Part shown: positions 29,595 through 32,153 of the stretch, in pieces
Layout: every line of letters starts with the position of its first letter
Position numbering within the stretch: the first letter of the stretch is position 1
Virus record (IMG/VR): IMGVR_UViG_2609460060_000003
Coordinates: 31,136-95,135 of that record
Source of the DNA: a virus
Taxonomy: Duplodnaviria; Heunggongvirae; Uroviricota; Caudoviricetes
DNA length: 64,000 nucleotides
Reading direction: 5' to 3' (one strand)
Made by a program: the position numbers and the translations under genes
The notes under the pieces: generated by a model
The model's input: the letters and a program-made list of their open reading frames with translations, nothing else
What the model was told of the DNA's origin: nothing
Databases searched by the model: none

Positions 29595-30257
29595 ATGCTC
29601 GCCTGGAGGCTGAATTTGCAGCTGAGAATGAACATACCACCCAGGGCGACTAGGACTGTTTTTTGTGTCGGTAGCGGTCCGTCACTCACTCGTGAGGACT
29701 GTGCTGCTATAGAAAAAACTGGCTGTTCAATCATTGCGGTTAACAATTCCTGGCTGATGTTCGATGACATTTATGCCTTATACGCCGGTGATTTGTCATG
29801 GTGGAAGCAATACGGTTCCACCATACCGGGAGGGAGGTTCCGCAAAGTGACAGCCAACCTGGCGGCGGCGAAATCATTTTCGTTGGAGTACAGGCGATAT
29901 TGTGGACCGGCGGAAGGGGTAAATAGCGGCGCGCAGGCTATCAGTCTGGCTGCTGAATCAGGGGCTGAAGTAGTGGTATTAGTCGGCTATGACTGTTCTC
30001 TGCAAAACGGCCTTCATTGGCATGGCGCGCACCCTCAAGCCCTACGGAATCCAACGCAGGTGTCTATTTCAAAATGGCAACAGCAGTTCCTGGATACCCG
30101 CAAAAAACACGCAGATTTACATATTTTGAATGCAAGTAGGAGCAGTGCAATTCAATGTTTCCCAAGAATAAATTTAGAGGCAGTGATCGCGTTATTATCG
30201 TCGGCAGTGGCCCAAGCGCCGCAAACTTTGTTGCGCCGCGCGGAGTGCCGATTATAG
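29595..30257 (+). CDS. Rossmann-like protein, paralog A
   Basis: VFCVGSGPSL...IIAVN N-terminal motif; alternative start 29628. Confidence 0.4.
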   Translation: MLAWRLNLQLRMNIPPRATRTVFCVGSGPSLTREDCAAIEKTGCSIIAVNNSWLMFDDIYALYAGDLSWWKQYGSTIPGGRFRKVTANLAAAKSFSLEYRRYCGPAEGVNSGAQAISLAAESGAEVVVLVGYDCSLQNGLHWHGAHPQALRNPTQVSISKWQQQFLDTRKKHADLHILNASRSSAIQCFPRINLEAVIALLSSAVAQAPQTLLRRAECRL

Positions 30258-30781
30258 CGGTCAATGGGGCTATCGACTGGCTTAACCGCGCTTCTTATTT
30301 TTTCACACTTGATCCATCGCCAGACAATATGCGGCGCGTTGGTCGTGGCCGCCGTCGCCGTGGTGTTTGTTATTGCATGGCACTACCCGATGTTAAAGAA
30401 CGTGAAGTCAGAGACGGCATTCTGTGCTTCCGTCGTGTGGCTGAACGCGGCACAGAGCCAAAAAATACGAATTCTCCCGAGTGGTGGGCGTGGCGCTGGT
30501 CCGCACATTTCGGCCTTTGCGAAGATGAGAATGAAATTGCCAGCGGCAATAGTGCATATGGTGCTCTGAACCTGGCTTTCCATATCGGATTCAAACATGT
30601 AGCCCTGGTGGGCGTTGACGCTACGCAAGAACTACGCGTTCACTCCGGCGGCACGCCAAAAAATCTAAGTCACCTGCCTTTGTTATTCCAGTCTGCGCGT
30701 GAACAGATTGACGTTGTTTCATGCGGGAAAATGGGAGGTATTCCGCAGATGACTCTTAAAGAATGGCTGAAGAATACATGA
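30155..30781 (+). CDS. Rossmann-like protein, paralog B
   Basis: [10 protein letters not shown]...IIAVNGA, same motif as paralog A; stop overlaps next start (TGATG). Confidence 0.4.
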
Positions 30782-31455
30782 TGGCACCCACAATTTATCA
30801 CCGTATCGACGGTACCAAATACAGGAATGTCTGGGTTGTTGGTGATCTGCATGGTTGCTACACCAGACTGATGTCCGAACTCCATCGTGTGGATTTTGAC
30901 CCGGCGCAGGATTTACTGATATCGGTCGGCGACCTTATCGATCGCGGTACTGAAAATGTCGAATCTCTGGAACTATTGCAGATGCCCTGGTTCAGGGCAG
31001 TAGTGGGGAACCATGAGCTGTTGATGCTCGATGCGTTAAGTCCTGATGGCAACGTGAATAACTGGCTAATGAATGGCGGACAATGGTTCTTCATGCTGGA
31101 CACTGATCAGGAAATATTAGCCTGGGCGCTGGTGGAGCTGGTAAAGCGTCTGCCCTATATCATTGAGTTGAACACGGGGCAAGAAACTATCGTTATAGCC
31201 CATGCCGACTATCCGGATAATGAATACCAATTCGGTAAGGAGGTGCCGCTTTTCAACGTTGTCTGGGCGCGCGAGCGTATCAGTGATTCGATGGATGATA
31301 TTGGTGGCGAAATTTCGGGCGCAGATCGTTTTATCTTTGGTCACACTCCGGTGAAAAGCCCGAAGACATTCTGGAATCAGCAGTATATCGACACTGGTGC
31401 CGTATTTTGCGGAAACCTGACATTGATGAAAGTGAAAGGTGATGGTGCAGCATGA
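30781..31455 (+). CDS. Ser/Thr protein phosphatase (lambda PPase-like metallophosphatase)
   Basis: GDLHGC, GDLIDRG, GNHE, GHTP motifs; extended similarity to recalled lambda phosphatase. Confidence 0.85.
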
Positions 31456-32153
31456 AGATTGCTTTAGTTTTTCGCTCTGGTGGTGACTATAACGCTTCCG
31501 ATGTGCAGTGGCTGGTTAATCAACTGCCAAAAGACTATGAAATTATTTGCCTGACAGACCTGAAGTGTTTACATGTACCTGGCGTCAAAGTTATCCCATT
31601 GATCAACCAGTGGCAAAAGTGCCGTGGCTGGTGGGCGAAAATCGAGTTGTTCCGACCGGATATAACCGATGATCTGTTCTATCTGGATTTGGACACGGTT
31701 ATTGCCGGTGATATACGCCCAATCCTAGAGCATCCACCAACCAGCTTCACCATGCTTAGGGATTTTTACCATCCACAATATCGTGGCAGCGGTGCCCTGT
31801 GGATACCAAATAGTGTTAAAGCGCATATCTGGAGTTCATTCTGGCAAGATCCGGAAGGTTGGATTTCTCGTTGTGTCACTACTGAGTGCTGGGGTGACCA
31901 GGGGTTCTTACGAAAGGTTATGGGCGATGATACACCAGCATTTCAGGATCTGTATCCAGGATGGTTTGTAAGTTACAAGGCCGATGTTGTGGAACCTGGT
32001 TCAAAATATGCGAGCGCGCGTTACTCCAGGGGGAATGGGGCATTACCAAAAGACTGCCGAATAATCTTTTTCCACGGCAAACCGCGACCTCGCGAAGTGT
32101 CAGAGGATTGGCTTCCCCTTATCAGCTCATTTTTTGAGCGAGAATCAGAATAA
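31452..32153 (+). CDS. putative glycosyltransferase-like protein (DxD-type)
   Basis: 233 aa; YLDLDTVI resembles a DxD motif; translationally coupled to the phosphatase gene. Confidence 0.35.

Follow-up and report, generated by a model that had tools for sequence, protein, structure and literature searches.

What is the function of a set of phage P1 genes still filed under 'putative morphogenetic function', and does the phosphatase gene lodged among them belong to the same pathway? The genes in question lie in a 64,000-nucleotide stretch of viral DNA (Caudoviricetes; IMG/VR record IMGVR_UViG_2609460060_000003, positions 31,136 to 95,135), referred to here as the window. An earlier note on this DNA had described a cluster of four genes, encoding two paralogous Rossmann-like proteins, a lambda-type phosphatase and a protein with a DxD motif, and had suggested that they act as one unit. 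The four open reading frames (ORFs) are present on the plus strand where it had placed them (Table 1), and the comparison with the P1 annotation that it proposed identified the interval as pmgO-pmgP-ppp-pmgQ. The window is P1 or a very close relative of it: positions 29400-32400 match AF234172 79397-82397 without gaps and with 98.7% identity over 3001 bases, and P7 is 98.0% identical across the same interval. Gene order, overlaps and flanking C1 operators are shared with the known P1/P7 locus (AF234172 / NC_005856; 98.0-98.8% nucleotide identity over the whole interval), from which there is no material difference; it is the same locus.

P1, a textbook phage, serves E. coli genetics as a workhorse, yet a fifth of its genes are still without a known role. 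The four ORFs are named pmgO, pmgP, ppp and pmgQ in AF234172, and hdmB, hdmC, ppp and hdmD in P7. The GenBank placeholder on pmgO, pmgP and pmgQ dates from 2004; RefSeq relabels the three as alpha-2,3-sialyltransferase, 'norphogenetic protein' and glycosyltransferase. Public labels are coarse (in RefSeq and PHROG, 'alpha-2,3-sialyltransferase', 'glycosyltransferase' and 'NinI-like phosphatase'), and no functional study of pmgO, pmgP, pmgQ or the hdm genes was found in literature searches that included DUF115 with phage and capsid glycosylation.

The comparative evidence described below gives pmgO, pmgP and pmgQ a concrete hypothesis, namely a three-enzyme glycan-building module that is separable from the phosphatase, and points to proteins made late in infection as the likely acceptor class. 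We regard the chances as evenly balanced that PmgO, PmgP and PmgQ form a cytoplasmic, late-acting protein glycosylation module, probably with a virion target. The module and its predicted part in glycan building are much firmer than the choice of acceptor.

A three-gene module conserved without ppp

Relatives of the cluster were sampled in two independent ways, with PmgQ in viral contigs (20 non-P1 loci) and with PmgP in one genome per species (15 non-P1 loci). In the PmgQ-based sample, a PmgO-type (MptE-like) gene was adjacent or fused in 14 of the 20 loci, and PmgP was also present in three. In the PmgP-based sample, PmgQ was nearby in 13 of the 15 loci and PmgO in 10. Natural fusions occur in both orders: PmgO is joined to PmgP in an unrelated phage, where a PmgQ gene follows the fusion (P0044), and PmgQ to PmgO in another locus (L081). 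From these fusions a PmgO-PmgP heterodimer would be predicted. Twenty multidomain proteins were found among 145 new top PmgQ representatives, and of these 10 have an MptE-like domain, six have sugar O-methyltransferase domains and three are tandem PmgQ-PmgQ proteins. Other neighbours and fusion partners of the module are sugar O-methyltransferases (FkbM, CmcI, TylF) and a sulfotransferase-like protein. The PmgQ family comprises at least 1450 clusters (50% identity level) at E <= 1e-30.

The settings of the module outside P1 are mostly structural operons of phages. In at least 12 unrelated phages it lies within the head-neck block or directly after the major head gene, the latter for example in an HK97-like Pseudomonas prophage (L105). 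The typical order, in head modules of both HK97 type and lambda type, is portal, protease, major head protein, module and head-tail adaptor, and FkbM or S-adenosylmethionine methyltransferases often accompany the module, as does a sulfotransferase-like gene once. In Citrobacter and Hafnia lambdoid prophages it is found between the lysis cassette and terminase. The head-block and lysis-terminase placements are late-transcribed positions. One Bacteroidota locus (L103) has the module among DNA-metabolism genes.

The sole clearly non-phage setting is in Pseudescherichia, where five loci (L091-L095) have PmgO, PmgP and PmgQ in constant positions and orientations. The annotated one of these (L091, 2357-13419) is a chromosomal island in which the three homologues lie in mixed orientation around Big_1 proteins: an inverse autotransporter of 1178 amino acids (aa) with seven Big_1 repeats, a 999-aa protein with Big_1 and RCC1 repeats, and a 494-aa Big_1 protein. 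The island is a candidate adhesin-glycosylation locus. Wherever a host of the module was identified, it was from a Gram-negative (diderm) phylum. No gene for a cytidylyltransferase (CMP-sugar synthetase; CMP, cytidine monophosphate) was found when the 106 fetched loci were searched with E. coli KdsB, so the sugar donors must be host-made.

Two observations on individual relatives may be added. In lambda-type head modules that carry PmgO/PmgQ-type genes (L081, 8885-9529; L071, 8832-9485), the methyltransferases are followed by a galactose-3-O-sulfotransferase-like protein (PHROG 3347, E = 1.6e-7), which hints at sulfated glycans in some phages. The Pantoea floridensis chromosome (L108/L109, 8001-8633) has a stand-alone PmgQ homologue of 49% identity between lpdA and acnB, with no phage genes and no MptE-like partner nearby. 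It offers no functional clue.

Ppp matches the lambda Ser/Thr phosphatase (NinI, PDB 1g5b) with E = 4.8e-92 over residues 11-229, Pfam Metallophos with 56.3 bits against a cut-off of 21.5, and the PHROG NinI-like family with E = 5e-110. The motifs GDLHG, GDLIDRG, GNHE and GH are read in its sequence, and the P1 annotation notes 64% identity to the lambda enzyme. The lambda-type metallophosphatase named in the earlier note is borne out by these matches, and the close full-length similarity to a characterised enzyme suggests that Ppp is an Mn-dependent phosphoprotein phosphatase.

None of the 35 non-P1 module loci has its gene (0 of 20 in one sample and 0 of 15 in the other). At the pmgP/pmgQ junction, ppp was found in P1-like elements only. 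The O-P-Ppp-Q order is kept in two diverged elements of this kind (L058 and L089; Ppp identity 58-66%), and ppp is lacking from a distant one (L061), which retains PmgM-O-P-Q-PmgR synteny with P and Q abutting. Phage D6 has a ppp gene, 89.6% identical in nucleotide sequence, whose neighbours are nin-type genes and do not include O, P or Q. Because ppp is absent where the module occurs elsewhere and is found alone in D6, PmgO, PmgP and PmgQ are regarded as a functional module and Ppp as a passenger, plausibly co-transcribed; ppp would be an insert specific to the P1 lineage, co-expressed with the module and having a separate function. The idea of a single functional unit is thus sustained for PmgO, PmgP and PmgQ, which are co-located and sometimes fused, and is not supported for Ppp.

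Folds and motifs of PmgQ, PmgO and PmgP

The segment YLDLDTVI, from which a DxD glycosyltransferase had been guessed, lies at residues 77-84 of PmgQ. Its DxD motif (D79-L80-D81) is invariant among 28 family members and aligns with the DAD of Gat1, WaaO and WaaJ. Near the C-terminus is the motif H208-G-x-P-x-P, of which H208, G209, P211 and P213 are invariant in the same 28 members. This region aligns with H-x-x-G-x-x-K-P-W of GT8, the motif that provides the third metal ligand, but both HMMER and hhalign place its histidine two residues away from that of GT8. Structure prediction, which had also been proposed, yielded a GT-A fold of GT8 type. The AlphaFold2 model has a predicted local distance difference test score (pLDDT) of 94.2, and nearly all of the top 50 Foldseek matches in the PDB were GT8 enzymes (Gat1, glycogenin, GlyE, LgtC and WbbM), with E = 1e-8 to 1e-6 and template modelling (TM) scores of 0.5-0.6. 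The profile of the 28 members matched Gat1 (E = 5.5e-7), the two DxD motifs falling in register, and glycogenin more weakly; one fused relative of PmgQ reaches PF01501 at E = 0.0013.

Fold, profile match and invariant DxD together agree with the original guess, and PmgQ is predicted to be a GT8-type retaining enzyme that uses a uridine diphosphate (UDP)-hexose. With WaaO and WaaJ, core enzymes of K-12, PmgQ shares motifs only, and close kinship was rejected. Some PmgQ homologues carry the label 'phosphohydrolase', probably an annotation that slipped over from the adjacent ppp.

The N-terminal motif that had been noticed in both proteins of about 200 aa is present: it reads TVFCVGSGPSLT...SIIAVNN in PmgO, and the counterpart in PmgP ends ...PIIAVNG. 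Pairwise BLASTP detected only an N-terminal 40-residue match (E = 0.003). The two family profiles aligned over 164 columns in hhalign with a probability of 98.1% and E = 1.1e-13, and on this match PmgO and PmgP are true but distant paralogs rather than a chance resemblance, as had been claimed. Their tentative assignment to the MptE/DUF115 type also stands, though both score below threshold with PF01973 (MptE-like). An MptE-like Rossmann-type fold was found for both, the natural PmgO-PmgP fusion passes PF01973 at 44.6 bits, and many homologues carry a precomputed PF01973 match.

Invariant or near-invariant positions are G28-P29-S30, N50, S111-G112 and G131-x-D133 in PmgO, and G19-P20-S21, N37, N132-S133 and G153-x-D155 in PmgP. 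The invariants of the PmgO family align with the motifs GNGPS, N31, TSG and GID of Cst-II; we take the Cst-II motifs aligned to the PmgO and PmgP invariants to be its CMP-sugar-binding residues. The GT42 motif set (GxGPS, an Asn after strand 2, T/N-S-G and G-x-D) is present in both families. In addition, invariant histidines follow G-x-D (H141/H143 in PmgO, H173 in PmgP) and may or may not correspond to His188, the catalytic base of Cst-II. A sequence-only search of the PDB with the PmgP profile gave nothing useful.

PmgO and PmgP appear to be members of the Maf / GT42 sialyltransferase / WaaZ superfamily, and a role as CMP-sugar transferases is predicted. Since E. coli K-12 is not known to make CMP-sialic acid, the label 'sialyltransferase' probably misnames the P1 proteins. 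Membership of the WaaZ family itself (TIGR04437 / PF27901) was rejected at 11.9 bits against a cut-off of 200, and hhalign with MG1655 WaaZ gave probabilities of 39% for the PmgP family and 28% for the PmgO family. All four proteins lack transmembrane segments. PADLOC, which detects anti-phage defence systems, returned zero matches for five cluster proteins, the product of the small upstream gene pmgN included.

Transcription, gene junctions and neighbouring features

The coordinates of the cluster and its surroundings are collected in Table 1. The upstream control region consists of PpmgN and Op83. The latter has more than three mismatches to the C1 consensus and was not recovered in the consensus scan. 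At the other end, the C1 operator pair that had been read as bounding the cluster was recovered directly by the consensus scan and is annotated in P1. Op86a and Op86b flank PpmgR and are named OpmgRa/b in AF234172. Across the window, 15 consensus-like C1 sites were counted, where chance would give 0.33.

Table 1. Features of the pmgN-pmgQ region and its neighbours (window coordinates)
Feature	Position	Strand	Description and basis
LPpmgL	28497..28515 (approximate)	+	Lpa-dependent late promoter; mapped from P1 78495-78513
pmgM	28852-29436		VRR-NUC nuclease (RefSeq label)
PpmgN	29406-29434	+	Predicted sigma-70 promoter; promoter scan; P1 annotation 79396-79422
Op83/Oppp	29438-29454	-	C1 operator; P1 annotation 79435-79451 alone; offset 49997
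pmgN	29498..29653	+	51-aa acidic ORF, GTG start; P1 annotation and sequence
pmgO	29595..30257	+	220 aa; first MptE-like paralog (Maf/GT42-like), predicted CMP-ulosonic-acid-type sugar transferase
pmgP	30155..30781	+	208 aa; second MptE-like paralog; AGGAG 12 nucleotides before ATG
ppp	30763..31455	+	230 aa; lambda-type Mn-dependent Ser/Thr protein phosphatase (by similarity)
pmgQ	31452..32153	+	233 aa; GT8-like GT-A glycosyltransferase (predicted)
Op86a	32155-32171	+	C1 operator; 3 mismatches to 17-bp consensus; P1 annotation
Inverted repeat	32180-32212		Between Op86a and Op86b; T-run
Op86b	32204-32220	-	C1 operator; 3 mismatches to 17-bp consensus; P1 annotation
Terminator	33737-33765		Strong intrinsic terminator directly 3' of pmgS
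pap	33790-34296		Second phosphatase, Pap

The genes of the cluster are closely packed. The transcription unit opens with pmgN, which extends over the annotated pmgO start. As annotated, the 3' end of pmgO overlaps pmgP by 103 nucleotides, and distant homologous loci repeat pmgO/pmgP-type overlaps of about 37-100 nucleotides. Since PmgO homologues align only from about residue 18, the true pmgO start may be the ATG at 29628. Similarly, ppp likely starts at 30778 instead of 30763, because the pmgP stop codon (30779-30781) overlaps an ATGATG. The ppp stop and the pmgQ start share an ATGA (31452-31455). Co-transcription of the four genes is plausible, given that they overlap, that the scan found no convincing internal terminator in the cluster and that operators bound it. 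The late promoter LPpmgL, mapped with a 1-nucleotide shift inferred from Op82 and P2pmgL, lies upstream of pmgL-pmgM. No plus-strand terminator-like sites were found in the scan between this promoter and pmgN, and late read-through from it into the cluster could occur.

Just 3' of pmgQ is the inverted repeat AAAACGTGATG-TACACT-CATCACGTTTT, followed by a T-run. This hairpin, which the terminator scan did not list, resembles a bidirectional intrinsic terminator within the PpmgR promoter/operator region and could end the pmgN-pmgQ transcript. The terminator further downstream (11-bp stem with 6 GC pairs, and a T-run) marks the end of the pmgR-pmgS unit. pmgM and pap belong to the neighbouring operons, and P1 has two unrelated phosphatases, Ppp and Pap, inside 3 kb. 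As a note on nomenclature, the typing error 'norphogenetic protein', which comes from the original P1 record, now stands in several hundred database entries, among them Ochrobactrum, Erwinia and Citrobacter proteins.

Proposed function, alternatives and known systems

As to donors, acceptor and timing, we infer the following scheme. PmgO, PmgP and PmgQ would be three soluble cytoplasmic sugar transferases that make up one conserved, horizontally mobile phage module. The Maf-like pair PmgO and PmgP would use a host-made CMP-activated ulosonic acid, for example CMP-3-deoxy-D-manno-octulosonic acid (CMP-Kdo), to our knowledge the only CMP-ulosonic donor in E. coli K-12. PmgQ would add a hexose from a UDP-sugar, and the three would jointly build a short glycan on a protein. 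In phages, a component of the virion would receive the glycan, in the cytoplasm and at a late stage of infection. Ppp, whose gene the P1 lineage would have acquired between pmgP and pmgQ, would be co-expressed and have a separate role. The acceptor is most likely a protein because the settings of the module outside P1 are late or structural operons and, in a single bacterial lineage, the vicinity of immunoglobulin (Ig)-repeat adhesins. Virion glycosylation of this kind would parallel the glycosylation of flagellin by Maf and that seen in mycobacteriophages. The more specific proposal is put forward only tentatively, and we think it rather less probable than its negation: that the widespread module O-glycosylates the virion proteins of phages that infect Gram-negative bacteria, P1 among them, by means of a CMP-ulosonic acid (possibly Kdo) and a hexose, and Ig-repeat adhesins in Pseudescherichia as well.

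Several points weigh against this scheme. The P1 cluster is downstream of a late promoter yet has its own C1-repressed sigma-70 promoter, and expression may therefore be early rather than late. PmgQ of P1 has no Pfam match, PF01501 included, and no NCBIfam match; PmgO and PmgP score 22.6 and 20.9 bits with PF01973 against a gathering cut-off of 34.6, and the MptE-like fold also includes pyrophosphokinases. We know of no case of protein O-glycosylation with Kdo, which makes the donor prediction weak. The module is shared by phages of unrelated capsid types (the P1 myovirus, HK97-like, lambda-like and P22/SU10-like), a spread that a conserved host acceptor fits more easily than a phage-specific protein. 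No report of a glycosylated P1 virion protein was found, and glycans go unmentioned in two recent papers on the structure of P1 (capsid with DarA/Hdf; tail-baseplate), which is an absence of mention and not a test. Finally, single in-frame deletions of pmgO, pmgP, ppp and pmgQ gave normal plaques and kept antirestriction (PMC9024508), so the knock-out check suggested in the earlier note has in published work yielded neither a plaque nor an antirestriction phenotype. CRISPR interference (CRISPRi) knock-downs of pmgO to pmgQ were likewise without effect on plating (PMC10695390). For pmgN, CRISPRi cut plating about 70-fold and the gene was scored essential, whereas its in-frame deletion was viable (PMC10695390); simple polarity does not explain this discrepancy, since guides on pmgO to pmgQ had no effect.

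The main rival is modification of the cell envelope, which we consider unlikely. PmgO and PmgP would act as WaaZ-type Kdo transferases and PmgQ in the manner of WaaO/WaaJ, the GT8 glucosyl/galactosyltransferases of the core, and together they would remodel the nascent lipopolysaccharide (LPS) core or a glycan linked to undecaprenyl pyrophosphate (Und-PP) or another lipid, on the cytoplasmic side of the inner membrane; as a consequence, superinfecting phage would be excluded or fewer progeny trapped on debris. P1 adsorbs to the LPS core, its receptor, and WaaZ uses CMP-Kdo, a donor general to LPS-making Gram-negative bacteria. Faint WaaZ_KDO_III matches were seen (TIGR04437 at E = 0.1 for PmgP; PF27901, 'faint', on the fusion P0044), but these and the hhalign comparison are far below threshold, as given above. 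LPS enzymes are found within GT8, one of the top fold matches is LgtC, and the WaaJ/WaaO motifs align. The identified module hosts are all of LPS-bearing phyla, and a universal host acceptor would fit the movement of the module between phages whose virion proteins are unrelated. Against this reading, the module has no membrane-associated or flippase component, and the non-phage copies flank protein adhesins and not waa or O-antigen genes. Moreover, the late structural operons of most phages with the module, or the C1 operator in P1, mean that the genes should be silent in lysogens and active only once most of the outer-membrane LPS has been made. Still less probable is a pathway of all four genes, in which Ppp would dephosphorylate a sugar-phosphate or phosphoglycan intermediate or the glycosylated protein. 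Overlapping codons on both sides of ppp, indicative of translational coupling, and the gene order shared by L058 and L089 would suit such a pathway; the 35 of 35 non-P1 module loci without Ppp, the abutting P and Q genes of L061 and the D6 gene in its nin-type setting argue against it, as does the close relation of Ppp to the lambda enzyme, whose gene presumably sits in the nin region.

Two further readings concern the substrate. PmgO and PmgP might not be glycosyltransferases at all: as kinases resembling MptE or thiamine pyrophosphokinase, or as a non-catalytic scaffold, they would have a small molecule or cofactor as their substrate, and PmgQ would glycosylate the product. The pyrophosphokinases within the fold class allow for this, but the alignment of family invariants with what we take to be CMP-sugar-binding motifs of Cst-II, and the glycosyltransferases and sugar O-methyltransferases among fusion partners and neighbours, make it very improbable. 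Hypermodification of DNA, by which P1 DNA would be sugar-modified before packaging and so evade restriction, has late-expressed precedents in Mu Mom and T-even glucosylation; the VRR-NUC nuclease gene just upstream and the DNA-metabolism genes around the module in the Bacteroidota locus also speak for it. As far as we know, P1 DNA is routinely cut and sequenced with no signs of bulky adducts. GT8 and Maf-like folds lie outside the known DNA glycosyltransferase families, and no base-hydroxymethylation genes are nearby. As the deletions left antirestriction unchanged (PMC9024508), this reading is hardly credible. Glycosylation of a late protein by PmgO, PmgP and PmgQ is the reading preferred here.

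The locus is known and annotated; the mechanistic hypothesis is new. The literature searches that could be run turned up no published account of the conserved PmgO/P/Q module with its fusions, of its separation from ppp, of its position after the major head gene or of its adhesin-island context. If the hypothesis is true, phages of diderm bacteria would gain their first described virion glycosylation system, and virion glycosylation would reach beyond actinobacteriophages; with Kdo as the donor, the protein modification itself would be new as well. Sugars on virion proteins of P1 or its relatives would affect antibody recognition and the stability of therapeutic or transducing phages, and the compact Maf-like and GT8 enzymes could be used for glyco-engineering in E. 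coli. A negative outcome would leave the cluster an ordinary accessory gene set. In-frame deletion mutants of the cluster genes exist (PMC9024508).

Among known systems, one parallel is that of mycobacteriophages Che8 and Rita, in which phage-encoded cytoplasmic glycosyltransferases decorate capsid proteins (Freeman et al. 2023, as cited in PMC11256854). Glycosyltransferases beside structural genes are likewise seen in many of the homologous loci here, where the module follows the major head gene, often with methyltransferases. The Che8/Rita system differs in its actinobacterial hosts and in enzyme families with no shown relation to PmgO, PmgP and PmgQ, and virion glycans are a prediction for the phages that carry the PmgO/P/Q module. 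The Ppp of P1 differs from the lambda phosphatase in genomic setting: the lambda gene, as we assume, has no glycosyltransferase nearby, whereas the P1 copy is wedged between two glycosyltransferase genes.

For PmgO and PmgP, the systems closest to hand are Maf and the GT42 enzymes. Maf of Magnetospirillum (PDB 5mu5) has about 630 aa, with additional N- and C-terminal flagellin-recognition domains, and shares 16% identity with PmgO and PmgP, which are minimal domains of about 200 aa. Its target is flagellin, and the P1 locus has neither flagellin nor nearby nonulosonic-acid synthesis genes. Similarity to Cst-I and Cst-II of Campylobacter jejuni reaches sequence E-values of just 0.07-0.3, and the acceptor of those enzymes is lipo-oligosaccharide. 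WaaZ, the Kdo III transferase of the LPS inner core, shows faint profile similarity in the C-terminal half, around NSG and G-x-D. PmgQ shares the GT-A fold, DxD, SG, DQ and the C-terminal H-G-x-P-x-P with GT8 enzymes (glycogenin, Gat1, GlyE, LgtC, WaaO/WaaJ) at 12-18% identity and, with 233 aa, is smaller than most of them. Three of its top matches, glycogenin, Gat1 and GlyE, act on proteins or protein-linked glycans.

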